Part shown: piece by piece, positions 13,484 through 60,902 of the stretch
Numbering within the stretch: the first letter of the stretch is position 1
Layout of the letters: each line of letters begins with the position of its first letter
Assembly: GCA_964374115.1 (NCBI GenBank)
Contig: CAYJXK010000001.1
Location: forward strand, 20,790 to 84,789
Reading direction: 5' to 3'
Length of the DNA: 64,000 bases
Source: an uncultured Gammaproteobacteria bacterium
Lineage (GTDB): Bacteria; Patescibacteriota; Patescibacteriia; Magasanikbacterales; UBA922
Translations under genes and position numbers: made by a program
Notes under the pieces: model-generated
What the model saw: the letters and a program-made list of their open reading frames with translations, nothing else
What the model was told of the DNA's origin: nothing
Database searches by the model: none

Positions 13484-14752
13484 ATGCCGCATGTAAAGCC
13501 AGAAATTGAAACATTCGCGAAAATCAAAGTGATTGGTGTCGGCGGATCTGGCGGATCTGCTGTTGATCGCATGGTTCGGCAAGGAATTCGAGGAGTCGAA
13601 TTCCTTGCCATGAATACCGATGTTCAGGCATTGCATCACAATAGCGCCCCGCACAAGCTGCATCTTGGCAAAACGGTCACTCGTGGACTTGGCGCAGGGA
13701 TGGATCCAGAAGTCGGGAGACGTGGCGCGGAAGAAACCCAGAATGAAATTCGTGAAGTACTCAAAGATACCGACATGGTATTTATCACGTGCGGACTCGG
13801 CGGTGGCACTGGATCTGGCGCCAGTCCGATTATCGCGGAGATCGCGAGAGAAATGGGCGCGCTTACAGTGGGCGTTGTCACCAAACCATTTTCATTTGAA
13901 GGACCGCAAAGAAAAAGAATCGCAGAGGCCGCGTACGATGAATTATCTCGGCACGTGGATACCGTGATTACGATCCCGAACGATCGGGTACTTCAAATTA
14001 TTGATAAAAAAACATCTCTTCTCGACGCGTTCAAAATTGTTGATGATGTCCTGCGACAAGGAGTCCAGGGGATTTCTGAACTCATTACTGTTCCGGGGCT
14101 TATTAATGTTGATTTTGCCGATGTGAAGACCATCATGCGCGATCAAGGATCAGCGCTCATGGGAATTGGCATAGGCTCTGGCGATACACGAGCGACAGAC
14201 GCGGCACACATGGCTATTTCAAGTCCACTGCTGGAAATTTCTATTGATGGAGCGCGAGGCATTCTCTTTACGATCACGGGCGGAACCAGCTTGGGTATGC
14301 AAGAGGTCGCAGAAGCGGCCAAGGTGATTACCACCTCAGCTGACGATGATGCAAAAGTGATTTTTGGGGCGGTGATTGATGAGAGTATGGGAGAGGATAT
14401 CCGGATCACCGTGATTGCGACTGGATTTGAAGATCGAGAACGGGAAAGAACATTGCGGCAAACGGAAGAAGATCTCATTGGTTCTCTTCCAAAGAAAAAA
14501 CCATTGTATTCGACCGCGCTTTTCACCAAAAAGAAACCGGTGTTTGACGTGGAGGAAAAAAATATCCCGTTGTCTCTTGACCAAGACCACGATCAAGAAG
14601 AGAGCCGGAAGAATATATTTACCAAAAAATCTCTCCAAGATCCCAAAGATACGCTCCGTCCCTTTTTGTCAGGGACGAAGAAAGAGAAAGAACTCGACGA
14701 TGTTGATGATCTCGAAATTCCCACCTTTATTCGTCGGAAGATGGGTATGTAG
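13484..14752 (+). CDS. ftsZ: Cell division GTPase FtsZ.
   Basis: [17 protein letters not shown], the tubulin signature [10 protein letters not shown], and the T7 loop NVDFADVKT. The ATG at 13484 is preferred; an in-frame TTG at 13457 is also possible. Confidence 0.95.
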
Positions 14753-18474: not shown

Positions 18475-18500
18475 TGGGAGCCGGACGGGACATCGGCTAT

Positions 18501-18530
18501 GGTAGAGACGCATTGCAATGCGTCTCTACC
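18501..18530. repeat. Perfect 30-bp palindrome GGTAGAGACGCATTGCAATGCGTCTCTACC between the convergent pyk and small-peptide genes.
   Basis: 15+15 nt self-complementary with no loop and no flanking U-tract on either strand. Confidence 0.7.
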
Positions 18531-18549
18531 TGCCCTGCCCCGGTCCGGT

Positions 18550-18699
18550 CTAGCCTTGGATAGCGATTTTTCTCAGGACGGCGGCGACCGCGATGAAAGC
18601 GATCACCAAGACGAGTATGAGGACGATCAGACATCCACAGCCGCCTGTGCCCTTCGCACTCCATCGCCCGAGAAAGAACCCAATCAGAAATTCCCACAT
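18550..18699 (-). CDS. Small membrane peptide (49 aa). Absent from the ORF track, which lists only ORFs of 60 aa or more.
   Basis: Translates as MWEFLIGFFLGRWSAKGTGGCGCLIVLILVLVIAFIAVAAVLRKIAIQG. AAGGAG sits 5 nt upstream of the ATG. A TTGACA-N16/17-TATATT promoter lies further upstream on the same strand. Confidence 0.45.
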   Translation of the reverse strand: MWEFLIGFFLGRWSAKGTGGCGCLIVLILVLVIAFIAVAAVLRKIAIQG

Positions 18700-18753
18700 G
18701 TGCGCTCCTTACGCATGAGGAAACACCTGTCCGTACAGTTCACGGAACGATAT

Positions 18754-18781
18754 AATATAGCACAAAAAAAGGGATTGTCAA
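18754..18781 (-). promoter_or_regulatory. Near-consensus sigma70-type promoter (TTGACA-N16/17-TATATT) driving the small minus-strand peptide gene.
   Basis: Minus-strand reading: tTTGACAatcccttttttttgtgcTATATTat, then AAGGAG and ATG. Confidence 0.5.
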
Positions 18782-18790
18782 ACTACGACT

Positions 18791-41292: not shown

Positions 41293-41367
41293 ATCATTTT
41301 TCTTTCTTTTATATTGTATGCGTGTTTTTTCCTTTTGGCAAGGGCAAGGGGTTTGACAAACATATTC

Positions 41368-41393
41368 AAAAATCCGACCTCAGTCGGATTTTT
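41368..41393. terminator. Bidirectional intrinsic terminator (A5-TCCGAC-ctca-GTCGGA-T5) overlapping the topA stop codon.
   Basis: 11-bp stem with a 4-nt loop. The U-run is present on both strands. Confidence 0.6.
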
Positions 41394-43674
41394 GAATCGC
41401 CTCATTCCTCAGAAATAGTCTATTAGCTATTGGCTCTGAATTCACCAAATAATCACACGTCTTGCTCGAACATCGAAACGTATTTTTTGCGCCAAACACA
41501 ATGGGGGAAGAGCATGTCGGACACATCTGTCCCGTGGGTTTGCTCCAGAGAGCATTTTTGCATTCGGGATAGCGATTGCACCCATAAAACGGTTTGCCAC
41601 GTTTGCTTTTTCTTTCCACAAATTCTCCCTCTGTACAAAGATTGCACCGAACACCAGTTTTCTTTTCTATTTTTTTGATTGTTTTACACTCAGGATACCC
41701 GCTACAGCCCAAAAACATCCCAAATCGGCCTCGTTTTACCATGAGTGGCTTCCCACAGTTTTCGCATACCTCTCCAGATAGTTCTTGTTGCATGGTCGCT
41801 TCCTCTCCTATCGGTTTGGTGGTTTTACATTCCGGATAATTGGAACAGGCCATGAATTTTCCAAAGCGGCCAATCTTGATCACCATGGGGCTGTCACATT
41901 TGACACAGCGCTCATCTGTTTTTTCTTCTGTGAGCGCTTGTTTGGAGAGCTCAGTGGTTTTCGTCACAATCGTCTCATGAAACGGCTCATAAAACGCGAC
42001 GATGATAGGCTGCCATTCTTTGGCGCCAGAGGCAATTTCATCGAGCGCGCCTTCCATATCAGCTGTGAATGCGTAATCAACAATGTTGGGAAAATGTTCC
42101 ACCAATAGATCAATGACAATCAGCGCGATATCTGTCGGCTCGAATCGTTTTTTTTCATCTCGAACGACATAACGGCGCTCTTCAAGGGTGGCAATGGTGG
42201 GGGCATAGGTAGATGGTCGCCCAATGCCGTATGCTTCGAGAGACTTCACCAATGTGGCATCCGAATATCGAGACGGTGGAGTGGTGAAATGTTGTTCAGG
42301 TTTGAGAGAAAGACAGGTAAGTGGGGCATGTTCTTGTACGTCAGGGAGAAGCGATTCCCGAAAAAGTTCTGGATAGAGAATAAGCCAACCATCAAATTGA
42401 ATGGTTTGTCCTGTGGCGCGGAACATATATGGTTTGTCGGTCGTTACAGATTTCCCTTCCACATCAATGGTGGCAAGATTCACCGCCGCCGCTTGCATCT
42501 GAGTGGCGACTGCTCGTTTCCAGATCAGCTCATAGAGCCGATATTGTTCTCGGCTGAGATGTGCCTGTATCGAATCGGGTGATCGTGCGGGATCAGCTGG
42601 TCGAATCGCTTCATGCGCTTCCTGTGCTCCTTTGGATTTTGTTTTGTATCGGCGCGGTTGAGGAAGAGTATACCGTTCACCGAACGATTTTCTGATTGTC
42701 TGTTCCGCCTCGCTAAGAAAAGTATCTGAGAGATTATTCGAATCGGTTCGCATGTACGTGATAAGGCCGTGTGATCCTTCTGCTCCAAGTTCAACTCCTT
42801 CATAGAGCTGTTGCGCGATACGCATGGTTTGTTTGGAAGAAAATCCGAGTTGGTGATTGGCCACCTGTTGCAGGGTGGATGTGGTAAATGGTGGTGGAGG
42901 ATTTCTTCGACTTTCTTTTTTTGTGATAGACAGGACACGATATATCGCGTCTTTGAGATTTCCCAAAATATCATCCATCTGTTCTTGTGTCTTGATATCG
43001 AGGTTGTCGAGTTTTTTTTCATCAATCGCGTGGAGTCGGGCAACAAAGTGCATGTCTTTTTTTTTCATCTCCTCGTCGGCAAACTGTCCATCAAGGGTCC
43101 AATATTCTTCTGGTTTGAAGTTTTTTATTTCTCGCTCCCGTTCAACAATAAGGCGGAGCGCGACCGATTGCACTCGTCCAGCAGAAAGCCCTTTCGCCAC
43201 TTTTTTCCACAGCAGTGGGGAAAGCTCATAGCCTACGAGGCGATCAAGGATACGCCGCGCTTGCTGGGCATCAACCAATTTTTGATCAATAGGTCGCGGA
43301 TGCGCGAGCGCTTCTTCAATCGCCCGTTTCGTGATTTCATGAAACACCATCCGTCGCGCCTTGTCTTTTGGGACATCGAGGAGTTCAGCGAGGTGCCACG
43401 AGATGGCTTCGCCTTCACGATCTTCATCTGTGGCAAAAATAATATCCTTGCTTTTTTTTGCTAATGCTTTTAGTTTTTTTACGGTTTCGCTTTTTTCTTT
43501 TGGAACCACATATTTGGGCGCGAATGTTTTTCCTTCGATATCCAGCCCCATGTTGGATTTGGGAAGATCGCGAATGTGCCCAAACGAAGAAGCCACGGAA
43601 AAACCTTTGCCAAGGAATCGAGTGATTGTTTTTGCTTTGGTGGGAGATTCGACGATGACAAGTGTTGGTTTCAT
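41380..43674 (-). CDS. topA: DNA topoisomerase I.
   Basis: TOPRIM N-terminus MKPTLVIVESPTKAKTI. The active-site Tyr region and three C-terminal C4 zinc ribbons are present. Confidence 0.95.
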   Translation of the reverse strand: MKPTLVIVESPTKAKTITRFLGKGFSVASSFGHIRDLPKSNMGLDIEGKTFAPKYVVPKEKSETVKKLKALAKKSKDIIFATDEDREGEAISWHLAELLDVPKDKARRMVFHEITKRAIEEALAHPRPIDQKLVDAQQARRILDRLVGYELSPLLWKKVAKGLSAGRVQSVALRLIVEREREIKNFKPEEYWTLDGQFADEEMKKKDMHFVARLHAIDEKKLDNLDIKTQEQMDDILGNLKDAIYRVLSITKKESRRNPPPPFTTSTLQQVANHQLGFSSKQTMRIAQQLYEGVELGAEGSHGLITYMRTDSNNLSDTFLSEAEQTIRKSFGERYTLPQPRRYKTKSKGAQEAHEAIRPADPARSPDSIQAHLSREQYRLYELIWKRAVATQMQAAAVNLATIDVEGKSVTTDKPYMFRATGQTIQFDGWLILYPELFRESLLPDVQEHAPLTCLSLKPEQHFTTPPSRYSDATLVKSLEAYGIGRPSTYAPTIATLEERRYVVRDEKKRFEPTDIALIVIDLLVEHFPNIVDYAFTADMEGALDEIASGAKEWQPIIVAFYEPFHETIVTKTTELSKQALTEEKTDERCVKCDSPMVIKIGRFGKFMACSNYPECKTTKPIGEEATMQQELSGEVCENCGKPLMVKRGRFGMFLGCSGYPECKTIKKIEKKTGVRCNLCTEGEFVERKSKRGKPFYGCNRYPECKNALWSKPTGQMCPTCSSPIVFGAKNTFRCSSKTCDYLVNSEPIANRLFLRNEAIQKSD

Positions 43675-46831: not shown

Positions 46832-48220
46832 TCATTTCTTTCTCTTTCTCACATGAATGATAACAGGCGTCCCAATAATGTCAAACTGTTCACGGAGACG
46901 ATGTTCGAGGTAGCGAAGATAGGATGGGTGTACCGAAGTTTTTTCTTTAATGAGGATGTCAATGACAGGTGGGGAAGCGCCGATTTGCCGCATGCCAAGA
47001 ATTTCTGGATATCGTGTCCCTTTGCCACGCGAGGGTTTGTGGCGTTTTACCGCGCCTCGGGAGAAGGACGCGAGGGCAGGGGCAGGAATGGTGAGTTTTC
47101 GAGCAAGAGCGATACGAACCACCAGAGGAAAAATATCACGCACATGCGCGCCTGTTTTCGCGCTGACAAAAAGAATGGGCGCAAAGTCAATATGGGGGAA
47201 GAGGGATATGATCATTGCTTTTACTTTTTTTTGATAGAGTTCGCTTTTGTCTTCCGCTCGATCCCATTTATTGAGGATAATAATGACGCTTTTTCCTCGG
47301 CGTTCGAGAAGTCCGGCAAGTTGCTTGTCTTGGTGAGAAATATCCTCGCTCGCGTCAAGTACCAAAAGGACGATGTCAGATTCTTCGACACTTCGAATAC
47401 TTTTTTGGATTCCTTGTCCTTCGATTTGACCCGCGACATTGGCTTTGCGTCTGATGCCGGCCGTGTCAACAAAAAGGATAGGATGTTCAGCATATTCCAT
47501 CAGGGTGTCATGCGGCTCGCGTGTGGTGTGAGGAGTGGGGCTGACGATCACTTCTTCACGACCAATGAGCGCGTTGAAGAGAGATGATTTTCCCACATTG
47601 GGCTTGCCCAAGAGGTTCACGCGAATCGGCCTTTCCTCCTCTTCCAGTTCTCCGGGGTTTTTATGGCGTTTTTTCAATTCTTCAAATATATAATCCAAAA
47701 AATCTCCTGTGCGTCGGCCGTTGGTGGCAGAGATCAGAAAAGGCATTCCAAAGCCAAGCCGGGACCATTCCCGAATATCCATTTCCTGTTCTATCCGATT
47801 CGTATCGGCTTTATTTGCGATGAGTCGCACGTTTGTTTTCTTTTTTTTCTTGAGCCACGTGGCGATATGGCGATCTTCGGGAAGGATTCCGGCGCGGGCG
47901 TCTGTCACAAAGACAACAAGATGCGCCCGCTCGATGGCCTGTTCGGTTTGTTTTTGAATATCTGGCGCAAGGAGCATCGTGGGATCTGTCGCGATCCCAC
48001 CGGTATCAATCAAACGAAATAAAAGGCCTCTCCAGCGCACGAGGCCGATATTTTTTGTTCGAGTCGTTCCAGGCTCTCTCGAAACGATCGCTTTATGTTC
48101 CTCAATGAGACAATTAAATACTGTGGATTTTCCCACATTCACGCGCCCCACAAGCGCTACCACTGGCAAATGGTCAGTTTTACGGATTGTTTGTGTTGTC
48201 ATAGTTTTCATCAAAATCAT
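46832..48220 (-). CDS. der: Ribosome-assembly GTPase Der (EngA), with a tandem G-domain pair and a KH-like C-terminal domain.
   Basis: Two Walker A motifs (GRVNVGKST and GKPNVGKSS) plus DTAG motifs. Confidence 0.9.
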   Translation of the reverse strand: MILMKTMTTQTIRKTDHLPVVALVGRVNVGKSTVFNCLIEEHKAIVSREPGTTRTKNIGLVRWRGLLFRLIDTGGIATDPTMLLAPDIQKQTEQAIERAHLVVFVTDARAGILPEDRHIATWLKKKKKTNVRLIANKADTNRIEQEMDIREWSRLGFGMPFLISATNGRRTGDFLDYIFEELKKRHKNPGELEEEERPIRVNLLGKPNVGKSSLFNALIGREEVIVSPTPHTTREPHDTLMEYAEHPILFVDTAGIRRKANVAGQIEGQGIQKSIRSVEESDIVLLVLDASEDISHQDKQLAGLLERRGKSVIIILNKWDRAEDKSELYQKKVKAMIISLFPHIDFAPILFVSAKTGAHVRDIFPLVVRIALARKLTIPAPALASFSRGAVKRHKPSRGKGTRYPEILGMRQIGASPPVIDILIKEKTSVHPSYLRYLEHRLREQFDIIGTPVIIHVRKRKK

Positions 48221-49688
48221 TCCCCAAAATCACCAAGATATCCGCGGTCGAAGAGACAAAAACATCCAAGGAAGATTGCTGTATTGGCACATGGAAGGTT
48301 GCTTGTAATGCATTGATTGTTTTTTCAAGTAATGCTGTTTTGGGGCGTATGAGAAATACGCCACTTTTTTCTATAGGGCGGATAGGGGTATTTCCAATGT
48401 CGACGACAATAAATTCACTCTCTTCAAATTGTTTTTTGACGCGTGCCGCAAGCCCTGCTTCCCATGTGCCATTCTGGATTTCAATTTTTCCAGGATATGC
48501 GGGGGTATTTTTTTTTATCAATGGTTCATCTTGAACAGATATGTTTGCAAGAGTGTTTGGATCGAAGATACGCGAGATCAATGTTTGAATTGAATCAAAA
48601 TTTCCGTCTTTTGGTCGGAGAAAAAACCCCATGTCCGGGTCTGAAGCATTTTCCAAATAGCCATCTTTTTCTGTATCAAGGACGACGGTTATCAAGCGTC
48701 CTCTGTCAAAATCACGGGCAAATTTTAGAAGTGACATCATATCGCCAAATTCCATGTTTGTTGTCATGTGCTTTTCGAGCGTATTCAGAAGGGCGTGAAT
48801 CTCAATAGGATTGAAGAGGGTGGCAGGGGAAAGGATTTTTTGTTTCAATGCCATGAGCATTTTTTGTTGGCGTCGCGCTCGCGCAAAATCAGAACCTTCT
48901 CCATTGTTGCCATGGCGAGATCGGGCAAATTGCAATGCGCGCGCGCCTTTCATGGTTTGCATGCCTTTTGCAAAAGAAATTGTTTGATATTCAGTGTTTT
49001 CAGCGGGAAATTGGGTATCGGTGAACGATTGTTCGACGTCAACCTCAATTCCACCGAGGGAATCAATTGCTTCTTCAAATGCGGTAAAGTCCACACGCAC
49101 GACATAATGAATCTCCATGTCAAAGGTGTTCTCCACAACTTTTTCTGCGACTCCGAGACCATTGGGTGGCGTTTTCGTTTCGCCAAGCGCATTGGCATAA
49201 TTTATCTTTCTTACTCCATATCCGGGCATATCTACCGCAAGATCTCGCGGGATAGATATCATGGCAACCTGCCGTGTCGAGGGTTTTACACTCACAATCA
49301 TCATGGTGTCGGTAAGGAAAGGGCCATCGTGTCCTATGCCTCCCATGCCAAGAAGGAGAATATTCACTCGGTCGTCGTTCGCGCCGGCAAGTAATGTGCC
49401 TTGCTGAAACACAAAATACTTGAGTTTTTTGAAAAGTCCTTTTGGCGCGATTGGCTCGAGCGTAGAAGGGTCGAATGCTGATGGATCATTGGGGAGGCGA
49501 TCTGGAAAGAGGCGAGTGGCGAGAAATAGGGCACAGAGCACCACAACGAGATAGAACAAAAAAACAGCGCGCTTTTTTGGGCGAGTATACTGAGGAAAAT
49601 GTTCTTCAGGATGGAGTAAATTTGGCACGCGATGCATGGAGGTGAGTATACGGGAAGTGGATGGTTTTGGCAATGATTTCTCTTGCAT
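48180..49688 (-). CDS. LytR-CpsA-Psr (LCP) family cell-envelope phosphotransferase.
   Basis: N-terminal TM helix. LCP core LLLGMGGIGHDGPFLTDTMMIVSVKP...ISIPRDL. C-terminal LytR_C-like region. Confidence 0.85.
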   Translation of the reverse strand: MQEKSLPKPSTSRILTSMHRVPNLLHPEEHFPQYTRPKKRAVFLFYLVVVLCALFLATRLFPDRLPNDPSAFDPSTLEPIAPKGLFKKLKYFVFQQGTLLAGANDDRVNILLLGMGGIGHDGPFLTDTMMIVSVKPSTRQVAMISIPRDLAVDMPGYGVRKINYANALGETKTPPNGLGVAEKVVENTFDMEIHYVVRVDFTAFEEAIDSLGGIEVDVEQSFTDTQFPAENTEYQTISFAKGMQTMKGARALQFARSRHGNNGEGSDFARARRQQKMLMALKQKILSPATLFNPIEIHALLNTLEKHMTTNMEFGDMMSLLKFARDFDRGRLITVVLDTEKDGYLENASDPDMGFFLRPKDGNFDSIQTLISRIFDPNTLANISVQDEPLIKKNTPAYPGKIEIQNGTWEAGLAARVKKQFEESEFIVVDIGNTPIRPIEKSGVFLIRPKTALLEKTINALQATFHVPIQQSSLDVFVSSTADILVILGNDFDENYDNTNNP

Positions 49689-49730
49689 AATAAAGACGTT
49701 TTTGATACGATAGGTGGGAACGCTGTATGG

Positions 49731-49806
49731 CCGCTTAGCTCAGTTGGTTAGAGCGCTGCATTCACATTGCAGAGGTCGAAGGTTCGAACCCCTCAGCGGC
49801 TACCCG
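49731..49806 (+). tRNA. tRNA-Val (anticodon CAC).
   Basis: GGCCGCTTAGCTCAGTTGGTTAGAGCGCTGCATTCACATTGCAGAGGTCGAAGGTTCGAACCCCTCAGCGGCTACC. Has a 7-bp acceptor stem with a terminal G-U pair, anticodon stem CTGCA/TGCAG and loop UUCACAU. There is one A-C mismatch in the T-stem. Confidence 0.8.
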
Positions 49807-49831
49807 ACACGATATTCTTTATCCCAATCCT

Positions 49832-50338
49832 ATGCCCACATCAATCCAAGAACGTACACCTCTTGGTGATATTCTCGCTGAATGGCGGATCACAGAGTAT
49901 AGTCAACACGAACGCAATCATGCGTGGTATATTATTATGGGTTTTTTAGGGTTTTTGTTTGTCTTGTATGGGATTTTTTCAGGAAATTTTCTGTTTTCCC
50001 TTATCATTATTCTTGCGGGCATTATCTTGTTTCTCCAAAGTAAACAAACGCCCCTTGTGGTGACCGTCGCGATTTGTACCAATGGATTTATTATTGGGAA
50101 TCGTTTGTATCCCTTTTCAGAACTTGAAAAATTTTATATCATCTATCGGCCTGAAGAAGACCTAAAAACACTGTTTTTTGACACGAAGAGCCCATTTCGC
50201 CCGATGCTTCGGATTCCACTCGAGGATCAAAATCCCATAGAGATCCGCGAACACCTCAAAGGATTTTTGGTTGAAGATGTGGAAAAAGAAGATGAGCCAG
50301 CAGGGGATACGGTGGCGCGTAAGTGGCAGATACATTGA
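49832..50338 (+). CDS. Hypothetical membrane protein (2 TM helices) flanked by two tRNA genes.
   Basis: GFLGFLFVLYGIFSGNFLFSLIIILAGIILFL hydrophobic hairpin and an acidic C-terminus. No recognisable family. Confidence 0.5.
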   Translation: MPTSIQERTPLGDILAEWRITEYSQHERNHAWYIIMGFLGFLFVLYGIFSGNFLFSLIIILAGIILFLQSKQTPLVVTVAICTNGFIIGNRLYPFSELEKFYIIYRPEEDLKTLFFDTKSPFRPMLRIPLEDQNPIEIREHLKGFLVEDVEKEDEPAGDTVARKWQIH

Positions 50339-50344
50339 CATCGC

Positions 50345-50416
50345 GCACCCGTCGTTCAACGGATAGGACGTCAGCTTGCGGAGCTGATAATCGTGGTTCG
50401 ATTCCACGCGGGTGCA
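50345..50416 (+). tRNA. tRNA-Arg (anticodon reads GCG).
   Basis: GCACCCGTCGTTCAACGGATAGGACGTCAGCTTGCGGAGCTGATAATCGTGGTTCGATTCCACGCGGGTGCA. Has a perfect 7-bp acceptor stem, D, anticodon (TCAGC/GCTGA, loop UUGCGGA) and T (CGTGG/CCACG, TTCGATT) arms. The anticodon call is by hand-folding only. Confidence 0.65.
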
Positions 50417-50473
50417 CATCGTCTAGACCCACCTTCATGTCTAAGCGTCTGAGTGATACAATAATGACACCCT

Positions 50474-52642
50474 ATGTCATTATTTTTTGATTCTCCCATT
50501 TCCTCCCTTCGCCGGGTTGGCCAGGTGTTGATTCGGTCTTTGAAGCGCCTTGGAATCAATACGGTGCGCGATTTGTTGTATTATTTCCCCTTTCGCTACG
50601 AAGATTTTAGTCGAATTGTCTCTATTTCCAACCTACGCGATGGGGAAGAAGTAACCATTCAAGGGGTCATTGAGTTGATCGCCAACAAACGCAGTCCGCG
50701 CAAGCGTACTATTATCACCGAAGCTGTGGTAGCGGACGAAACAGGCAAATTGCGGGTCGTGTGGTTTGGTCAACCGTTTATCACCAAAATTTTACGAGTA
50801 GGAGAGAAAATATATCTTTCGGGAAAAGTGACGAGTGACATGCTGGGACCGGTCATGAAAGGGCCGGGGTATGAAAAAGTAGGCAGTAAGCATTCAGTAG
50901 TAAGCATTCAGCAGACGACCCATACAGCCAGGATTGTACCCATTTATCCGCTCACTGCAGGGCTTACGCAAAAGCAGACGCGGTTTCTGATGAGCCAGAT
51001 TATCGAAGTGACAAAAAATATTTCTGAATGGTTGCCGGATGATATTCGAAAGAAAGGCAATTTTATTTTTTTGAGTCACGCTCTACGCGCCATTCATTTC
51101 CCAAACAATGCTCTTGATCTGCAACAGGCGCGGCGACGGCTAAAATTTGATGAATTATTTTTATTACAATTGCGCGCGGAAATGATTCGTCAATCTGTGC
51201 GACAAGAGAAGGCGCCTGTGATTGGGTTTAAAGAAGAAGAGATTCGCGCGTTTGTGCAATCATTGCCATATCGGCTTACCAAAGCACAAAAAATTGCGGC
51301 CTGGGAAATTTTTAAAGATATTGGACGATCAGAACCAATGAATCGGCTACTCGAAGGGGACGTGGGGTCGGGCAAGACCGTGGTCGCGGCCATGTGTTTG
51401 TATAATGCGATGCTCAACGGCTATCAAGGGGTGCTCATGGCACCAACCAGTATACTGGCAACTCAACATTTTAATTCATTGATCTCTCTGCTGGGGACAA
51501 GAGCAAGAATTGTTCTTCTAACGAGCGAAGAAATTGGTCATTGGGGTGTAGAGATGCATGAGAAAACACAGGGTAAAAAAAGAGCGGAATTGAAACAAAA
51601 GATCGCACTGCGGGAAGTGGATATCGCGATTGGCACGCATGCATTGTTGACAGAGGATGTTCAATTCAAAAGTTTAGGGTTGGTGATTGTGGATGAGCAA
51701 CATCGGTTTGGTGTGGAGCAGCGCAAGATCATCCGTTCCAAAGCCCAAAAAAATATCACTCCGCATTTTCTGTCAATGACAGCAACACCAATCCCACGTT
51801 CATTATCTCTTACGTTATACGGAGATTTAAATCTGTCGATCATTAATGAAATGCCGCCGGGTCGTAAGCCGATTATCACGCGCCTGGTTGATCCGCACAA
51901 TCGGGAAAAGGCATATGGGTTTATTCGGGAACAAATACAGAAGGGCAGGCAGACTTTCGTTATTTGTCCACTCATACAACTTCAAGATAAGAAGAAACAA
52001 GATACAATAACCAAGAGTCAAGAGACAATAAAACAATATAGCAATAGAAACATCTTCTCTACTTCCGATGAACGAAAGTCGGTGTTGGAAGAATATGCCA
52101 AACTTTCTGAGAAAATTTTTCCGGATCTTCGAGTTGGTTTTCTTCACGGAAAGATGAAGTCAAAAGAGAAGGATGAAGCCATGAAACAATTTGCCAATGG
52201 GGAGTTGGATATTTTGGTTTCCACTTCGGTGGTTGAAATTGGCGTAGATATTTCAAATGCCTCTGTTATGATGATCGAAGGAGCCGAAGGATTTGGGCTC
52301 GCGCAACTTCATCAATTTCGCGGACGGGTGGGCAGAAGCGACCATCAATCATATTGTTTTCTTTTTACCAATAGTATTTCAGAAAGTGTGAGAGAGCGGC
52401 TTCATTTTTTTGAACAGACGACAGATGGATTTGCCCTCGCTGAATATGATCTCAAAGATCGAGGACCGGGAGATGTATATGGGAAAATGCAAAGCGGCAT
52501 GATGGAGTTTCGGCTTGCGACTACGCGAGATCATGGACTCATTCGATTGGCGAGGGAAATGGCGCGTGGGATTGACTTCACAAAGTACAGGTCTCTTGAA
52601 ACAAAAGTAGAGGAGTGGGAAAAGAGAGTGCATTTGGAGTAG
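50474..52642 (+). CDS. recG: ATP-dependent DNA helicase RecG.
   Basis: Wedge/OB domain, Walker A motif GDVGSGKTVVA, DEQHRFGV motif and helicase motif VI QLHQFRGRVGR. Confidence 0.9.
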   Translation: MSLFFDSPISSLRRVGQVLIRSLKRLGINTVRDLLYYFPFRYEDFSRIVSISNLRDGEEVTIQGVIELIANKRSPRKRTIITEAVVADETGKLRVVWFGQPFITKILRVGEKIYLSGKVTSDMLGPVMKGPGYEKVGSKHSVVSIQQTTHTARIVPIYPLTAGLTQKQTRFLMSQIIEVTKNISEWLPDDIRKKGNFIFLSHALRAIHFPNNALDLQQARRRLKFDELFLLQLRAEMIRQSVRQEKAPVIGFKEEEIRAFVQSLPYRLTKAQKIAAWEIFKDIGRSEPMNRLLEGDVGSGKTVVAAMCLYNAMLNGYQGVLMAPTSILATQHFNSLISLLGTRARIVLLTSEEIGHWGVEMHEKTQGKKRAELKQKIALREVDIAIGTHALLTEDVQFKSLGLVIVDEQHRFGVEQRKIIRSKAQKNITPHFLSMTATPIPRSLSLTLYGDLNLSIINEMPPGRKPIITRLVDPHNREKAYGFIREQIQKGRQTFVICPLIQLQDKKKQDTITKSQETIKQYSNRNIFSTSDERKSVLEEYAKLSEKIFPDLRVGFLHGKMKSKEKDEAMKQFANGELDILVSTSVVEIGVDISNASVMMIEGAEGFGLAQLHQFRGRVGRSDHQSYCFLFTNSISESVRERLHFFEQTTDGFALAEYDLKDRGPGDVYGKMQSGMMEFRLATTRDHGLIRLAREMARGIDFTKYRSLETKVEEWEKRVHLE

Positions 52643-52650
52643 CGGGTCTC

Positions 52651-52680
52651 TTGACACAAAGCTTGAAAACCATGTATCAT
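52651..52680 (+). promoter_or_regulatory. Near-consensus sigma70 promoter (TTGACA-N18-TATCAT) immediately after the recG stop, driving the small ORF.
   Basis: cTTGACAcaaagcttgaaaaccatgTATCATgg, followed by GGGAGGAGG and an ATG at 52709. Confidence 0.5.
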
Positions 52681-52708
52681 GGCGCAGGCTGTAACCTGGG
52701 AGGAGGTC

Positions 52709-52915
52709 ATGAGGAAGACGATTCAGATTCGACGGACAGGAGAGCCGACGGATTTGAGGGGCGACATCACGAGAGTGAAAGTCGCCGGTCGCTGGTTCGA
52801 GGTCAGGGAAGCAGTGGCCAAAGGATTGATCGACTCTGCTCATCTGCGTCCCGATTCGCCGCTTCCTACGCCACGTTCTGGAAGGAACCCCAAGTCATTT
52901 TGGGATTGGAAATAG
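52709..52915 (+). CDS. Small (68 aa) protein of unknown function in a GC-rich module.
   Basis: MRKTIQIRRTGEPTDLRGDITRVKVAGRWFEVREAVAKGLID... A GGAGG motif sits 5 nt upstream. Has its own promoter, and local GC is visibly higher than in flanking genes. Confidence 0.4.
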   Translation: MRKTIQIRRTGEPTDLRGDITRVKVAGRWFEVREAVAKGLIDSAHLRPDSPLPTPRSGRNPKSFWDWK

Positions 52916-52942
52916 CTCCCTTTGCTTCGTCCTGTCTTTCTT

Positions 52943-52989
52943 GATCTCGCGTCGTAGAAGCACAATGGCGTGCAGAGCGACGCGAGATC
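52943..52989. other. Strong stem-loop (12-bp perfect stem GATCTCGCGTCG/CGACGCGAGATC, 23-nt loop) between the small ORF and the convergent radA.
   Basis: Perfect inverted repeat seen directly. Lacks a canonical U-tract. Confidence 0.6.
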
Positions 52990-52993
52990 CCCC

Positions 52994-54343
52994 CTATTCT
53001 GTCTGGCGAATAAGCTCTTGAATGTTCTGTACAGAAATCAACTGAAGACCTTGTGCAAGTATTGGGGTCTTTTTTTGTTTTGCCACAATCACCCGTTTCA
53101 TGCCAAGCGTTTCACATTCTCGGAGTCGTTTATCTGTCGCGCGCACACTTCTCACCTCTCCACCCAATCCCACTTCACCAAAGACGACCAGATCTTTTCC
53201 AAGCGTTTTATCTTTGAAACTACTCGCGATTGCAAAACACACGGCGAGGTCTGCCGCAGGCTCGTCAGCGCTCATGCCACCTACCACGTTCACATGAATG
53301 TCGTATTGGCCCAGATTTACCCCCGCTCTTTTTTGAAGGACTGCGACAAGGACATGCAGACGATTGAGATCAAACCCACTTGTTTTGCGCACCGGATACC
53401 CGAATGAGGTTTTGTTGACGAGCGCCTGAATTTCGACGAGAAGTGGCCGCATTCCCTCCATGAGACAGGTAACAACGCTCCCAGGAATCGATTCACCTCT
53501 TTCTTCAAGAAAAAGCGCAGACGGATTTTTGACATCCGCGAGTCCTCCGGACGTCATCTCAAAAATACCAACCTCATCTGTTGCCCCAAAACGATTTTTT
53601 GCCGCGCGGAGAATCCGATAGGTATGGAATCGGTCGCCTTCAAACGAAAGAACAGCGTCGACAAGATGTTCCAATGTTTTTGGCCCTGCAACAGCCCCAT
53701 CTTTGGTCACATGGCCAATGAGGACGATTGCAGTGTTACTTGTTTTTGCCGTGGTAAGGAGTTTTGTCGTGCATGCGCGAACCTGAGTCACTCCTCCGAT
53801 TTCCCCCCCTACCTCGTCTGAAGAAATGGTCTGGATGGAGTCAATAATCGTCAACACTGGCTTTTTGGCATGAATCGTTGCAATGATTTTTTCAAGATTG
53901 GTTTCGTTTCCAATCTGGAGAGACGTATTGACATGGGTCTCTATGTTTATTCTATCCGTCCGCATTTTGATCTGCTCCACTGCCTCTTCTCCAGAAATAT
54001 ATATGGTATTTGGTACTGCAAGCGCTATCTGCATTGCAAGCGTTGATTTTCCAATCCCTGGCTCACCGCTCAGAAGCATGAGACTCCCAGGCACAATGCC
54101 GCCACCAAGCACTTGATCGAGTTCACCGATATTCGTCCGAATTCTTGTCACTTCTTTCCCTTGAATGTCTGAAAGACTCACGGTTTTTGTTGGTTCGTAT
54201 GATTCTTTTTCGTTGATTTTGGATTTTTGATTTTGGATTTTTGATTCACTCATGGTTCCCCACGCGCCGCATTCCAAACACCTGCCCGTCCATTTGACAA
54301 ACTGCGCGTCACAGTTCGTACAGATAAAGATCATTCCGGACAT
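52994..54343 (-). CDS. radA: DNA repair protein RadA/Sms.
   Basis: N-terminal C4 zinc finger (CTNCDAQ...CLECGAW), RecA-like Walker A GEPGIGKST and a Lon-protease-like C-terminal domain. Start placed at the internal Met MSGMIF. Confidence 0.9.
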   Translation of the reverse strand: MSGMIFICTNCDAQFVKWTGRCLECGAWGTMSESKIQNQKSKINEKESYEPTKTVSLSDIQGKEVTRIRTNIGELDQVLGGGIVPGSLMLLSGEPGIGKSTLAMQIALAVPNTIYISGEEAVEQIKMRTDRINIETHVNTSLQIGNETNLEKIIATIHAKKPVLTIIDSIQTISSDEVGGEIGGVTQVRACTTKLLTTAKTSNTAIVLIGHVTKDGAVAGPKTLEHLVDAVLSFEGDRFHTYRILRAAKNRFGATDEVGIFEMTSGGLADVKNPSALFLEERGESIPGSVVTCLMEGMRPLLVEIQALVNKTSFGYPVRKTSGFDLNRLHVLVAVLQKRAGVNLGQYDIHVNVVGGMSADEPAADLAVCFAIASSFKDKTLGKDLVVFGEVGLGGEVRSVRATDKRLRECETLGMKRVIVAKQKKTPILAQGLQLISVQNIQELIRQTE

Positions 54344-54353
54344 AGCTGTTTGG

Positions 54354-55670
54354 TTAATCAATTGCTGTTTCCCAGCTACATTGCCCTTTGGGGTCATGTG
54401 ATGAAAGATTGAAAGTCACCCCCAATTTTTTACCTAATTTATTTAATTTGAAATTAGGCGGGTCAGAATGCGTTCCTACCTCACAGTGGCCTTTGACCGT
54501 GTTATCATTGATAGGAAATCCATATTTTTTACTTAGAGCCGATATGAGTTTGGCAAGACTGATATATTGCTCTTCTGTGAAGACATTTTCTTTGTTCACT
54601 ACTTTATATTGTAAGTCAATACCAATGGATATCTTATTTACATTGCAACAGTGATTCATGACATGCAGTTCGTCTGCTAACTGAAAGACTGTGCCATCTG
54701 CAGTAATAGCATAATGACTTCCGATGGGGGTCTGTTTGAGTGTAGGTGGTATCACGAACTTTTGTTTGTTTATTGTCTTCAATGTTCCATAGTGGTAATT
54801 TTTAAACCACATAGAGATCATGTCTTTTTGTCTGTTGTTTGACCATCCTTGGTGGAGAACGACCATCTGCACATCCGATGCCGGCCTTTTTTGATTTTTT
54901 GTTTTCTGAGAAATATTACAATCCAAAAGACCAAGAAGACTGTAATTGATCGTAAGAGTAGAATATGATGCTGGAGAAGATGGAACAGGGATAAAGCATG
55001 GACGGGGAGGAATAATATATTCGTCTCCCTCTTCGAGAGGGGGAAGAGGTGACAACTGTGGAAATTCTGCTCGATTGTTATTATCGAACGGAAGTGGGAT
55101 GTCTGGTCCTTGCGGCCCTGGTTTCCAGACCTCTCCCTCATAGCCCATACTTTCTGCATGTTGAATCGCAATTTCTGGAAATTCTTCAGGCGGCACATAT
55201 AATATTTTCAAATTTCGAAATTGCACCAGCTCAGGATTGATCGTGTACAGAAGCACATACGAGCCAACGACAATAATAAGTCCGGTAACGGAGGCGGCAA
55301 TGCGCTTGAGCGCTTTTTTTTGTCCTTCTCCACCCTCGTCAGGACTCATATATTGCACTCCCGCGATAATGATCATCACAACAGCAAGAATCGAAATCGC
55401 GATCACGCTATAGCGGTAGACTGCCGCGAGATATTCGCCAAGGTAGGGGATGGAGAGGTAGGTGTTTCCGCTGTCATCAGTGAATGATAATTTTTCCACG
55501 TCTTTTGGGTTTGTAAAATTCAGGCCAGGAATAGTAATACGGGTCTGAGGTTTTTGGAGGAGGATATCAATTTCATCTTGTGTGGGCGCTTCAGCAGAAA
55601 CTGGAAAGAAAGGCCGTATACTTATTCCGATGAAAAGAAGACAGAAAATAATAAGATGCTTCTTTTTCAT
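54354..55670 (-). CDS. Secreted or membrane-anchored protein with a Pro-rich linker and a C-terminal N-acetylmuramoyl-L-alanine amidase (Amidase_2/PGRP) domain.
   Basis: Start placed at MKKKHLIIFCLLFIGIS (signal peptide) to avoid a 157-nt overlap with the downstream gene. C-terminal HYAITADGTVFQLADELHVMNHC...ISIGIDLQ...VKGHCEV resembles the Amidase_2 family. Confidence 0.6.
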   Translation of the reverse strand: MKKKHLIIFCLLFIGISIRPFFPVSAEAPTQDEIDILLQKPQTRITIPGLNFTNPKDVEKLSFTDDSGNTYLSIPYLGEYLAAVYRYSVIAISILAVVMIIIAGVQYMSPDEGGEGQKKALKRIAASVTGLIIVVGSYVLLYTINPELVQFRNLKILYVPPEEFPEIAIQHAESMGYEGEVWKPGPQGPDIPLPFDNNNRAEFPQLSPLPPLEEGDEYIIPPRPCFIPVPSSPASYSTLTINYSLLGLLDCNISQKTKNQKRPASDVQMVVLHQGWSNNRQKDMISMWFKNYHYGTLKTINKQKFVIPPTLKQTPIGSHYAITADGTVFQLADELHVMNHCCNVNKISIGIDLQYKVVNKENVFTEEQYISLAKLISALSKKYGFPINDNTVKGHCEVGTHSDPPNFKLNKLGKKLGVTFNLSSHDPKGQCSWETAID

Positions 55671-56311
55671 AAGGAAAGAAGTGTTTTCCATCCCTCGATT
55701 GTTTGTGGGGCGGTAATTTGTTTGTTCTCGATAAAGATCGCGGGAACCGACTGGATATTGAGAGACTCGGCGAGTGTTTCTATTTTTTTGATAAACGTTT
55801 CCGCAGCGCCACTCTGAAGGCATGTTTGGAATTCGTCTTTTTCCACGGGGATGGTTTCAAGACTCTGCAAAAGGATCGTATCCGAGAGAGCCGTGCTGTT
55901 TTCAAACGCAAAGTTTTTGAATGCGTCAAATTGTTTTTGACGATGCATACAAAACGCAAATTGATGCGCTGATCTGGTATTGAATGGAAATCGCGTCACC
56001 GGCAGTCCTTTCCAGATAATTTTTACTTTGTTTGCATCGTTTTCCACAAGCGTAGAAAGGAGTTGCATTTGCACTCGACAGGCATCACAGCCAAAATCTT
56101 CAAAAGCAATAATGGTACGCGACGCTTTTTTATCCCCAAGAATTGGATCATCGGGATACAGAGGGATGAACGAATTTTGGCGCGCTTCTGTTTGCATCTG
56201 TTCTGACGCGGTGATAGATGTGGGGCGATATTGGAGAATGCGAATAAAGAGCGCGAGAGAGGCAATGAGGAGCGCCGGGAAAAAAATGGCGAAGAGATGC
56301 TTTGTGGACAT
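55667..56311 (-). CDS. DsbA-like thioredoxin-fold thiol:disulfide oxidoreductase.
   Basis: N-terminal TM and a CxxC active site (FEDFGCDACRVQ). Confidence 0.65.
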   Translation of the reverse strand: MSTKHLFAIFFPALLIASLALFIRILQYRPTSITASEQMQTEARQNSFIPLYPDDPILGDKKASRTIIAFEDFGCDACRVQMQLLSTLVENDANKVKIIWKGLPVTRFPFNTRSAHQFAFCMHRQKQFDAFKNFAFENSTALSDTILLQSLETIPVEKDEFQTCLQSGAAETFIKKIETLAESLNIQSVPAIFIENKQITAPQTIEGWKTLLSL

Positions 56312-58367: not shown

Positions 58368-60902
58368 CTACACAAATCGAAATCGTCCATCTTTTTTTTG
58401 CAGTGTAACTTTTTCTTTTTTCATCGGCCGTTCTTTATAGAAGTGTACTGCCTCGTGGAGCGCTCGCGCAATGGTGCGTTCGATATGACGCGCTCCCGTG
58501 TCAATCGTGTATCCTTCTTTGGATATCGCTTCTATCGCGCTTTTGTGCACGCGCATGGGGAGAGGAATCGTGGCGCCAAGTGCTTGCAAAAGAAGAGCGG
58601 ATTGTTTTTCAATGATGGCGTGAATGTCTTTGGTTTCAAATGGAGAAAAGATGCAGACGCGATCAATACGGGCTAAAAGCGATTGGCCGAGCTCCTCTCG
58701 AATTTTGTCAAGAATCAACTCGTCACGAAACAAATGCGGTCGAGAACCAATCGAAGATTCTTCAGAAAATCCGAGACCGGCTTGTTTATAATACTCAGCG
58801 CCAATATTGGATGTAAGCACAATCACATTGTGGTGAAAGAGAATTTTTTTGCCGCTACTATCAGTGAGCTCTCCTTCGTCAAGGATTTGCAAAAGCAAAC
58901 GCCGTACATCCGGGTGTGCTTTGTCTATTTCATCAAAAATAATGAGAGCATGCGGGTGTTTTCGGATGCGTTCGATGAATGAATTGCGGTCTTTGTATCC
59001 TACATATCCGGCAGGGGAGCCGAGAAGTTTTGACACCGCGTGACCCTCGCTGAATTCGCTCATGTCGAGGCGAATGCAGGTATCGGGGTCTAAAAATAAT
59101 TCTCGGGCCAGTATTTTTGCTAATTCCGTTTTCCCCACTCCGCTCGGGCCTACGAACAAAAAGGACGCGCGCGGTCGAGGCCGGGTAGACAGACCAAGAG
59201 ACGATTGTTGCAGTGTGGTGACCACTCCGTCTATCACATGATCCTCTCCAATGATATGAGCAAGAAGCGTGCTGCGAATCGCGGCAATACGATCCCAGTC
59301 AGAGCTCATAAGCTGTTCTTCGCGTACCCCCAGCCGATCTGCCAACACCCGCGCCACGTCTGCCTCTCGTACGGTCGCGACCGACCGTCTCTTTTTTCCG
59401 TGTTTCACGCGTGTCAGTTTCGCGATTGCTTTCTCTGCTGTCTCGATTTTTTCTTTCCATCGTATCGCGTCTTCGAGGTGTTCTCCGCGAATGGCCTGTG
59501 TTTTTTGTTTTTCATAGGCTTCCTTTTCTCCCATGAGTCCTCGGAGTACCACATCCGTATCATCTGTTGCATGTGCCGAGGCGACTAAGGCAGATGCTTC
59601 GTCTAGGAGATCTATTGCTTTGTCCGGAAGATAATGATCGTGGATGTATTTCGTACTCAATGTCACTGCTCCTTGAATTGCGGATTCGTCAATCGTAATA
59701 GAATGGAATGTTTCATAATTTTTGGCCACGCCAGAAAGAATACGGATTGTTTCTTCGACTGTGGGTTCCGCAACATCGATGCATTGAAAGCGACGCTCGA
59801 GAGCTGGATCAGTTTGAATATATCGTTTGTGTTCATCAATCGTGGTTGCGCCAATGCAGTGAATCACCCCACGCGCAAGCGCGGGTTTCAGGATATTCGC
59901 GGCATCCATGGTGCCACTGTTCGATCCCGCGCCGACCAGATTGTGTATTTCATCAATGAAGAGAAGAATATCTGGTCGGTCGGCGATTTCATCAATCAGT
60001 TGTTTCAGACGCCCCTCAAATTCTCCGCGATAGATGGTGCCGGCAATAAGAAGCGGGAGATCAAGCGCCAGGAGTTTTTTGCCTCGCACATGCATCGGCA
60101 CGTCGCCTTCGAGAATGCGTTTTGCGAGTCCCTCGACAATCGCGGTTTTTCCCACGCCTGGTTCGCCAACCAAGAGTGGATTATTTTTTTTGCGTCGGGC
60201 AAGAATGTGCACCATACGATCGATTTCTTTTTCTCTTCCCACTACAGGATCAATCGTCTTTTGCACTGATGGGTCTGTGAGATTGGTCGTAAAAAATTCA
60301 AGAGCAGATGGGAGTGAGGGAGCGCTCCGCTTCTTCTTTTTTTCTTTGGCCACCGTTCCTTCAGGAGAGTGATGCGCGTGCTCCCGCACCTCGTCAATCG
60401 CATTGCTCAAATCCTCGACTGCGGGAAAATGGCTGGTGTTGGTAAAAATGGTATTCACTTGTTCGAGGATATCGGCAATGCGAATATGCAACTTCGCGAT
60501 GCATTCATGAAGATAATCGTCTCCTTCCTGAAGAAGCGCATGGAGGAGATGCTCAGTACCCACATAGGTATGTCCATGTTCATAGGCGACGAGCACTGCT
60601 TTTTCGATTACCTTTTTCGCGTGCGCGTTCAATTCAATCGCCATGAGCGTGTTGTAGGTGTCGGGACGCATTTTTTTTTCATGTCGCTCACGGCGTTTCA
60701 TCACATCAAGAACATGTTCGGCATTGCATCCTACTTTTTTGAGTATTTCTGCTCCCACAGATCCTTTTTCTTCTGCAAGCGCAAAGAGAAGATGGAGCGG
60801 AGTGACAGTCGAGGACTGTACATTGGCGGCAACCGTCATGGCCCGGCCAATAGTGTTTTTGAGATGCGTTGACAATTTATCTAAGAATTGAGTGGGTTGC
60901 AT
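58368..60902 (-). CDS. clpC: Clp-family AAA+ chaperone (ClpC/ClpB-type), with an N-terminal Clp_N domain, two AAA modules and a short middle domain.
   Basis: Clp_N repeats. AAA1 motif GEPGVGKTAIVEGLA and AAA2 motif GPSGVGKTELAKILA. The short linker (~70 aa) favours ClpC over ClpB. Confidence 0.85.
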   Translation of the reverse strand: MQPTQFLDKLSTHLKNTIGRAMTVAANVQSSTVTPLHLLFALAEEKGSVGAEILKKVGCNAEHVLDVMKRRERHEKKMRPDTYNTLMAIELNAHAKKVIEKAVLVAYEHGHTYVGTEHLLHALLQEGDDYLHECIAKLHIRIADILEQVNTIFTNTSHFPAVEDLSNAIDEVREHAHHSPEGTVAKEKKKKRSAPSLPSALEFFTTNLTDPSVQKTIDPVVGREKEIDRMVHILARRKKNNPLLVGEPGVGKTAIVEGLAKRILEGDVPMHVRGKKLLALDLPLLIAGTIYRGEFEGRLKQLIDEIADRPDILLFIDEIHNLVGAGSNSGTMDAANILKPALARGVIHCIGATTIDEHKRYIQTDPALERRFQCIDVAEPTVEETIRILSGVAKNYETFHSITIDESAIQGAVTLSTKYIHDHYLPDKAIDLLDEASALVASAHATDDTDVVLRGLMGEKEAYEKQKTQAIRGEHLEDAIRWKEKIETAEKAIAKLTRVKHGKKRRSVATVREADVARVLADRLGVREEQLMSSDWDRIAAIRSTLLAHIIGEDHVIDGVVTTLQQSSLGLSTRPRPRASFLFVGPSGVGKTELAKILARELFLDPDTCIRLDMSEFSEGHAVSKLLGSPAGYVGYKDRNSFIERIRKHPHALIIFDEIDKAHPDVRRLLLQILDEGELTDSSGKKILFHHNVIVLTSNIGAEYYKQAGLGFSEESSIGSRPHLFRDELILDKIREELGQSLLARIDRVCIFSPFETKDIHAIIEKQSALLLQALGATIPLPMRVHKSAIEAISKEGYTIDTGARHIERTIARALHEAVHFYKERPMKKEKVTLQKKDGRFRFV

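Follow-up and report, generated by a model that had tools for sequence, protein, structure and literature searches.

Introduction

What is encoded, if anything, in the 351-bp gap that separates the convergent genes recG and radA in a member of Candidatus Magasanikbacteria? The gap lies in a 64-kb stretch of contig CAYJXK010000001.1, which is called the window here and whose numbering is used for all coordinates. An earlier note on this DNA had described the gap as an autonomous, compositionally distinct small unit and had suggested a horizontally acquired small regulator or an antitoxin-like gene. In our study the autonomy of the unit was borne out, as it was found to have its own promoter, Shine-Dalgarno (SD) sequence, open reading frame (ORF) and hairpin. 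The reading that we favour, at a rough probability of 0.55, is that the ORF of 68 codons (ORF68) is a lineage-specific gene for a small basic protein and the local occupant of a conserved expression slot that follows recG.

Promoter, Shine-Dalgarno sequence and reading frame of the module

The module opens with a sigma-70-type promoter on the plus strand (52651-52680), in which TTGACA (52651-52656) and TATCAT (52675-52680) are 18 nt apart and match the consensus at 11 of 12 positions, in keeping with the usual arrangement of two hexamers near TTGACA and TATAAT separated by 16-18 nt. Three distinct sites of at least 11/12 are present in the window on both strands (128 kb of strand), against about one expected from shuffled sequences. 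From this near-consensus promoter right after recG, transcription would start near 52687. The resulting leader of about 21 nt would carry the SD-like GGGAGGAGG (52698-52706, plus strand), in which GGAGG is separated by 5 nt from the ATG (52709). ORF68 occupies 52709-52915 on the same strand (68 codons, TAG stop at 52913-52915; MRKTIQIRRTGEPTDLRGDITRVKVAGRWFEVREAVAKGLIDSAHLRPDSPLPTPRSGRNPKSFWDWK), and a perfect 12-bp stem stands behind it. All these elements are present as the earlier note had listed them, with small corrections of the coordinates. A 78-aa version of the ORF has its ATG inside the -10 box and is for this reason incompatible with the module promoter.

The open frame of ORF68 has an SD-preceded start at proper spacing, and an ORF of at least 68 aa led by an SD of at least 5 nt arose in 0.3% of dinucleotide shuffles. 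Such a strong SD is exceptional in a genome of mostly SD-less genes; 31 of the 39 long genes of the window are without an SD-like match of at least 4 nt, and ordinary genes are almost never SD-led (starts e.g. at 50474, 26249, 33130 and 58368-60902). In many ordinary genes the ATG is preceded, at a distance of 8-12 nt, by a TAnAAT-like box, a sign that their mRNAs may have no leader or a very short one. The anti-SD motif of 16S rRNA is missing in about half of Parcubacteria (PMC9297842), and the scarcity of SDs in the window fits this published loss. A promoter of at least 11/12, a strong SD and an ORF are combined at only two places of the window, which are also its only GC-rich intergenic gaps; the module thus belongs to a small and distinct class of units.

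The guanine-plus-cytosine (GC) content of the gap is 55.3% in comparison to 45.9% (standard deviation 3.8%) for same-size windows, of which 0.3% equal it, and the earlier impression of a spacer GC-richer than its surroundings is upheld by this computation. Within ORF68 the GC values at codon positions 1/2/3 are 0.53/0.50/0.68 over the first 40 codons; the value at third positions (GC3, 0.675) compares with 0.442 +/- 0.083 for native 40-codon segments and is reached by 0.2% of them. The product, whose translation would begin at the 52709 ATG, is predicted to be basic and hydrophilic (isoelectric point (pI) 11.2, charge about +6.6) and includes the segments GLIDSAHLRPDSPLPTPR, TGEPTDLR and WFEVR. 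The exact 68-aa ORF was reported by the gene caller on contig L001. In a single-sequence AlphaFold model, a beta-beta-beta-helix arrangement is predicted for residues 3-37 (N-domain 1-45), followed by disorder.

A conserved expression slot after recG

The comparison set consisted of 72 fetched recG/radA loci (labelled L0xx or L1xx), in which the convergent arrangement is kept at intergenic distances of 0-3,395 bp. Among the 61 spacers of at least 100 nt, a promoter of at least 10/12 was found on the recG strand in 30 and on the opposite strand in 9, and about 22 of those 30 promoters lie within 165 nt of the recG stop. A group of 15 genomes shares the promoter as part of a DNA block of 85-92% identity, although their RecG proteins are no more than about 58-60% identical. 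As regards the presence of the cassette in related genomes, which the earlier note had proposed to check, the promoter slot recurs (about 22 loci) and the ORFs behind it are mostly unrelated.

The slot ORFs behind these promoters are 63-160 aa long, often have an SD-like run upstream and are without a Pfam domain. Those directly behind the promoter form mutually unrelated families (L003-L013, L019-L024, L020-L030-L058, L027-L052 and L008-L015), a further family (L017-L040) is located slightly downstream and singletons are also present. Of six family pairs for which the ratio of nonsynonymous to synonymous divergence (dN/dS) was computed, four gave 0.29-0.44 and one gave 0.92, and one was saturated. 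In most slot ORFs GC3 is frame-specifically raised to 0.69-0.90, whereas recG and radA of the same loci have 0.20-0.45 (0.79 against 0.20 in L053 and 0.89 against 0.34 in L020). This property is seen in L053, L023, L020, L019, L027, L030, L058, L052, L008, L015 and L041, where 81% of third positions are G or C, the signal is limited to the ORF and it has been kept over a synonymous divergence (dS) of about 1; L003, L047 and L051 do not have a raised GC3. Taken together, the dN/dS values and the frame-specific GC3 show that the slot ORFs of the relatives are real genes. In many Magasanikbacteria, a strong promoter past recG would drive a fast-evolving small gene, often preceded by an SD and rich in GC3.

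The recurrence of the promoter also raises the alternative that the promoter itself is the conserved feature and that convergent transcription regulates radA through antisense RNA or interference, the ORF being irrelevant. A strong promoter does face the radA 3' end in about 22 genomes with variable ORFs, and the window hairpin has no U-tract, so that termination may leak. On the other hand, the strong hairpins of many relatives, some with T-runs on both sides, insulate radA from the unit, and the ORFs behind the promoters of the relatives show both purifying selection and extreme codon bias, which means that coding is important. We consider a purely regulatory promoter very unlikely and retain the small protein gene as the preferred reading.

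A wider proposal may be formulated from the slot as a whole. The recG/radA junction of Magasanikbacteria could be a dedicated high-expression platform, equipped with a conserved promoter of consensus type, a leader and a structured terminator, that hosts unrelated, GC3-rich small genes which use an SD in otherwise SD-poor genomes and are exchanged or diverge extremely fast. It would then be a single-site locus of an arms-race or cassette-like kind, encoding, for instance, factors of these episymbionts that act in host interaction or against phages, with ORF68 as one variant. This proposal is tentative and rather doubtful at present. The combination of a conserved promoter, variable ORFs of extreme GC3 and SD-like runs in an SD-poor genome was not found described in our literature search. 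Taken alone, ORF68 only adds another orphan to the small genes of uncultured bacteria; its interest comes from the slot context. If the slot does encode abundant, fast-evolving small proteins, it would be a tractable entry point to the roles of small proteins specific to the candidate phyla radiation (CPR) and to the question of how the initiation of translation is divided up where a genome is losing its SD mechanism. The case also bears on annotation, as it shows standard gene callers passing over small genes of this kind: ORF68 was called on one of three contigs.

Several other features of the junction were observed in the relatives. The block TTTTCCCCAGTTTGcaTTGACAaattggggttttttgtaTATACTCGC..ATGTCT..GGCCGTCACGCCGTCAC is found 25-150 nt past the recG stop in L019, L020, L024, L027, L030, L041, L052 and L058; this promoter-plus-leader block is single-copy per fetched locus and is followed by ORFs from different families. 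A conserved element is present towards the 3' end of the slot in L020 (645-790), L041 (504-617), L024 (477-552) and L052 (587-771), with a related one in L004 (401-482), L003 (513-604) and L013 (about 335-432). It contains a long-range stem (CCACnnnCGAnTC ... GAG..GTGG) around about 45-60 nt, with a GGAGG-like run in the 3' arm and then a T-run, and it is 95% identical over 114 nt between L020 and L041. No Rfam match was obtained for this element, which may be more than a plain terminator. In L043-L049, L103, L105, L106, L110 and L112 the spacer holds a conserved gene of 160-215 aa on the radA strand, which resembles a 3-methyladenine DNA glycosylase by eye only. These loci are more distant (RecG 47-53% identical), and the named ones belong to Falkowbacteria or to unclassified Patescibacteria metagenome-assembled genomes. 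Other spacers contain a 476-aa gene (L028, L033 and L083) or a gene of about 770-800 aa (L011 and L018). The recG/radA junction is a general hot spot of gene gain and loss.

Relationship of ORF68 to the slot families

No significant homolog of ORF68 was detected in 5.8 billion protein clusters (self only) or in 1.8 billion cluster representatives, and there was no Pfam family at E <= 1, no PADLOC and no PHROGs match. The Foldseek comparison of the low-confidence model with the PDB gave nothing at E <= 0.001. With a profile built from L019 and L024, ORF68 outscored all but 3 of 20,000 shuffles; when 1,452 six-frame spacer segments were ranked with the same profile, the top two non-self segments were ORF68 and the L013 slot ORF, each in its proposed frame. 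ORF68 and the proteins of L019, L024, L013 and L003 are all small and basic (pI 9.7-11.7). ORF68 may therefore be a remote homolog of the L019/L024/L013/L003 family, probably a highly diverged one; the similarity is suggestive and not proven. The homology and structure check which the earlier note had put forward for the 68-aa protein has thus yielded no significant homolog and a model of low confidence, together with a weak profile similarity to L019, L024 and L013. From its size, charge, beta-hairpin-plus-helix N-domain and high-expression signals, the product would fit best with an abundant small nucleic-acid-binding or protein-binding factor.

Wider groupings did not hold. A single large family of all post-recG ORFs was rejected, as all-against-all phmmer comparison with reversed decoys gave small separate families and a second profile iteration recruited nothing further. 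A likeness between ORF68 and the L004 ORF caught by eye had p = 0.3, and a tblastn search of all spacer ORFs against the window spacer, made with the idea that it might be the remnant of a larger gene known from other spacers, returned noise only.

The slot-type GC3, which ORF68 shows in a milder form, and the similarity to L019 and L024 are confined to the N-terminal half of ORF68, and this speaks for a second alternative, in which the slot has kept its promoter and terminator, its resident small gene has lost function and ORF68 is the leftover of decay. The C-terminal 23 residues form a Pro/Arg-rich tail which is predicted to be disordered and is without the GC3 signal, the overall codon score is poor and the 351-bp spacer is short in comparison to the 440-1,300 bp or so that are typical for promoter-bearing relatives. 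Decay is contradicted by a frame which is intact from the SD-led ATG to a stop just before the hairpin, and by a promoter which still matches the consensus at 11 of 12 positions. Moreover, L013 is equally compact, with a hairpin abutting the radA stop as in the window, and its 64-aa ORF has a recognisable homolog in L003 (E = 5e-11). A decaying remnant is in our judgement quite unlikely, and an intact small protein gene is preferred over it.

The closing hairpin and RNA alternatives

The perfect 12-bp stem (52943-52989, strand-neutral) pairs GATCTCGCGTCG at 52943-52954 with CGACGCGAGATC at 52978-52989 at 12 of 12 positions. It starts 28 nt past the ORF68 stop, ends 4 nt from the radA stop and encloses a loop of 23 nt holding a 4-bp inner helix. 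The hairpin (-29.3 kcal/mol, z = -4.98) accounts for 94% of the ensemble, none of 200 shuffles was as stable, and it has the stable, GC-rich character of the hairpin of an intrinsic terminator. Strong hairpins are found within about 15 nt of the radA stop in many relatives, some with T/A runs on both sides. The mean hairpin strength after radA does not differ from that of mid-spacer controls (-17.7 against -17.3 kcal/mol); what speaks for termination is hence the position, together with single clear-cut cases. The earlier note had seen the stem as closing the block. The perfect stem itself is confirmed, whereas a private cassette end is not, as the stem lies 4 nt from the radA stop and the hairpins of relatives occupy the same place; a terminator-like hairpin belonging to the convergent junction is the better reading. 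The module transcript would end here, at a hairpin that would close the two convergent units alike and would stop antisense reading into radA. The only single-nucleotide polymorphism (SNP) in 3.9 kb across four samples, C52950T, falls in the 5' arm of the stem and is seen on contigs L162 and L163. In the plus-strand RNA a G.U pair is retained, and in the radA-sense RNA an A.C mismatch results; this is one event and anecdotal.

A number of results weigh against a protein gene with its own terminator. An ATG frame of 68 codons alone is found in 5.7% of composition-matched shuffles (p = 0.057). The codon score of ORF68 is -0.002 bits/codon as compared to 0.288 +/- 0.109 for real 68-codon segments, which places it at the 0.7th percentile of real segments and mid-range among spurious frames, and the three codon positions differ little in GC when the whole ORF is taken (0.53/0.54/0.59). 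On L162 and L163 the gene caller reported nothing in the spacer, and the AlphaFold model is of low confidence (predicted local distance difference test score, pLDDT, 54). Pairwise similarities between ORF68 and slot ORFs were lost after multiple-test correction and equalled those of reversed-sequence decoys. Since ORF68 has no significant homolog, no selection estimate can be given for ORF68 itself, and the four samples are identical inside the ORF. The function of the SD depends on the 16S anti-SD of this genome, and in view of the anti-SD loss in Parcubacteria (PMC9297842) it may be non-functional here. Finally, there is no U-tract after the hairpin on either strand (CCCCCCUAUUCU on the plus and AAGAAAGACAGG on the minus strand; flanks CCCCCCUAUU and AAGAAAGA); in the absence of a U-run the hairpin was not called by the terminator scan and is not a canonical intrinsic terminator.

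Some of these points would suit an RNA of about 300 nt, non-coding or with a dual function, that runs from the promoter to the hairpin and in which the open frame is incidental or secondary. A strong promoter, a terminal hairpin and GC-rich content in a 46% GC genome agree with such an RNA, as do the codon usage of ORF68, which is like that of spurious frames, the three of six frames that are largely open and an ORF length which alone is not significant; since ordinary genes lack an SD, GGAGG might also serve otherwise. An RNA gene is disfavoured by the transcript body (253 nt, hairpin excluded), which folds no better than shuffles (z -0.34), and by Rfam, in which no family was matched at E <= 1 in 49000-56000 and only tRNAs reached the gathering score in the window. 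No DNA similarity exists between the window spacer and any other recG/radA spacer, so there are no alignable relatives and no conservation at the DNA level. In addition, the analogous units of the relatives are clearly protein-coding, and the N-terminal half of ORF68 combines frame-specific GC3 with rank-supported profile similarity in the same frame. An RNA gene is, on balance, unlikely, and the coding reading of ORF68 is maintained.

Particular RNAs were also considered. The signal recognition particle (SRP) RNA, 6S RNA, RNase P and transfer-messenger RNA (tmRNA) had been suspected from the GC-rich, promoter-driven spacer and from an SRP-like string seen by eye, and were rejected as Rfam at E <= 1 was empty and ARAGORN found no tmRNA. 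An RNA common to the GC-rich spacers of relatives was likewise rejected, there being no Rfam matches and no DNA similarity to the window spacer.

Origin of the module

Two short sequences at the edges of the module recur in the 3' coding end of recG. The -35 region GGTCTCTTGACACAAA (52645-52660) repeats a recG-internal sequence (52590-52605) at 15 of 16 positions, the sole change being TTGAAA to TTGACA. The 3' arm of the stem (52978-52989) agrees at 11 of 12 positions with a second recG-internal sequence (52521-52532); the 5' arm could for this reason alternatively pair with the recG mRNA. An origin of the module by partial duplication of the recG 3' end was prompted by these repeats and rejected, as no extended DNA or protein similarity was found.

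The earlier note suggested that the cassette was acquired horizontally and codes for a small regulator or an antitoxin-like protein. This proposal can draw on a GC content 9 points above that of the genome, on atypical codon usage, on the orphan status of ORF68, on the variability of the recG/radA gap between genomes and on the module-edge repeats (15/16 and 11/12) that copy recG 3' sequences. Acquisition is not supported by the searches: the module and ORF68 have no phage or plasmid similarity at the DNA or protein level, PHROG and PADLOC comparisons gave no match and no donor-like homolog was present in the clusters searched. No repeats bracket the module, the ORF list of the neighbourhood has no integrase and extended homology between recG and the spacer is absent. 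Raised GC is common to the slot in most promoter-bearing relatives and has been kept there, with a conserved promoter, over dS of about 1, and a recent import is therefore unfitting. The antitoxin idea is not supported either, as no ORF of the 351-bp spacer other than ORF68 is led by an SD and there is no toxin partner, and neither an antitoxin nor a DNA-binding domain was found in Pfam. No positive evidence was obtained for a role as a small regulator, which is conceivable all the same. An imported regulator or antitoxin is, in our view, highly improbable, and the raised GC is better seen as a long-kept property of the slot in most promoter-bearing relatives than as a sign of recent arrival.

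Flanking genes and other sites of the window

The upstream flank recG (50474-52642, plus strand) encodes 722 aa with RecG_wedge, DEAD, Helicase_C and RecG_dom3_C domains and ends in a TAG stop at 52640-52642. No terminator was seen between this stop and the module, and read-through from recG into the module is thus possible. The convergent downstream flank radA/sms (52994-54397, minus strand) encodes 467 aa with a Zn-ribbon, a KaiC-type ATPase and a Lon_C/ChlI domain. The relatives of RadA and RecG place the window in Candidatus Magasanikbacteria (Patescibacteria/CPR). The closest non-identical RadA among 5.8 billion protein clusters has 70% identity, and the lineage is therefore isolated. An identical RadA protein is present on three further Logan contigs, and the same locus was recovered from four Logan assemblies (ERR4904390, ERR4904391, ERR4904392 and ERR3478686), with one SNP among them in 3.9 kb.

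A second mini-module of the same design lies on the minus strand at 18497-18790, antisense between two plus-strand genes in a gap of 53.8% GC. It has TTGACA starting at 18781, TATATT/TATTAT and then AAGGAG, followed by a hydrophobic ORF of 49 aa (18699-18550; MWEFLIGFFLGRWSAKGTGGCGCLIVLILVLVIAFIAVAAVLRKIAIQG), and ends with a perfect 15-bp palindrome (18501-18530). The 49-aa ORF has no PADLOC or PHROG match; a small membrane protein is one possibility for its product, a peptide like a type I toxin another. The third promoter-like site of 11/12 (TTGACA-16-TATCAT, 46857-46884, minus strand) lies within the 3'-terminal part of the preceding ORF (46832-48220), about 40 nt ahead of the next gene, whose ATG is at 46815 and which resembles peptidyl-tRNA hydrolase by eye only. 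Perfect inverted repeats were also noted at 13578-13609 (14 bp, GGCAAGGAATTCGA/TCGAATTCCTTGCC), within a coding region, and at 41364-41397 (15 bp, ATTCAAAAATCCGAC/GTCGGATTTTTGAAT), at a gene junction and with a terminator-like look.

Comparison with known systems

An exhaustive HMMER search with ORF68 brought up four large repeat proteins, P0122-P0125. P0123, P0124 and P0125 were rejected as homologs, being low-complexity repeat proteins. P0122 is a confirmed plectin-repeat protein, and its unit LRGTIRDPISGKEISLQEAIARGIIDA aligns with ORF68 residues 15-43 (LRGDITRVKVAGRWFEVREAVAKGLIDS) at a pairwise shuffle p of about 2e-5. Its library E-value of 1.5e-19 was not accepted as homology, as 11 near-identical repeats inflate it; with a single unit, phmmer finds no match. 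The hhalign comparison of ORF68 with one plectin repeat unit gave 20% probability (P 0.001, 22 columns), plectin 2n03 is among the eight weak PDB matches of a three-sequence profile, and the plectin repeat family PF00681 was not matched by ORF68 in Pfam at E <= 1. In general layout the plectin repeat is a beta-hairpin followed by a helix, and the beta-hairpin-then-helix predicted for ORF68 matches that of the plectin/plakin repeat. ORF68 is a 68-aa bacterial ORF with one copy, whereas large plectin-repeat proteins contain tandem arrays. The relation is a resemblance and not membership.

With the type II antitoxins, ORF68 shares the character of a small protein gene under its own strong promoter. 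It differs from them in having no adjacent toxin gene, no ribbon-helix-helix (RHH), AbrB, helix-turn-helix (HTH) or Phd domain and no PADLOC match. The window hairpin is comparable to bidirectional intrinsic terminators in being stable, GC-rich and placed exactly between convergent stops, and the hairpins of relatives are alike, several with A/T runs on both sides; it departs from them in lacking a U-tract on either strand. Dual-function small RNAs (sRNAs) are exemplified by SgrS/SgrT, RNAIII/delta-haemolysin and SR1/SR1P. The module is similar to them in its predicted transcript of about 300 nt, own promoter, terminal hairpin and short ORF. It is unlike them in having no excess structure beyond the hairpin, no Rfam match and no sign of a target for base pairing, and in the relatives it is the coding part that is under selection.

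The closest likeness of layout is to stand-alone bacterial small-protein genes (up to about 70 aa), with which the module shares its size, monocistronic layout, sigma-70-type promoter, SD and terminal hairpin, and ORF68 its poor detection by gene callers and its restriction to one lineage. In distinction from these genes, ORF68 is in no described family and occupies a slot in which the promoter is conserved and the ORFs are mostly unrelated, and the slot genes of its relatives have an extreme GC3 in AT-rich genomes.

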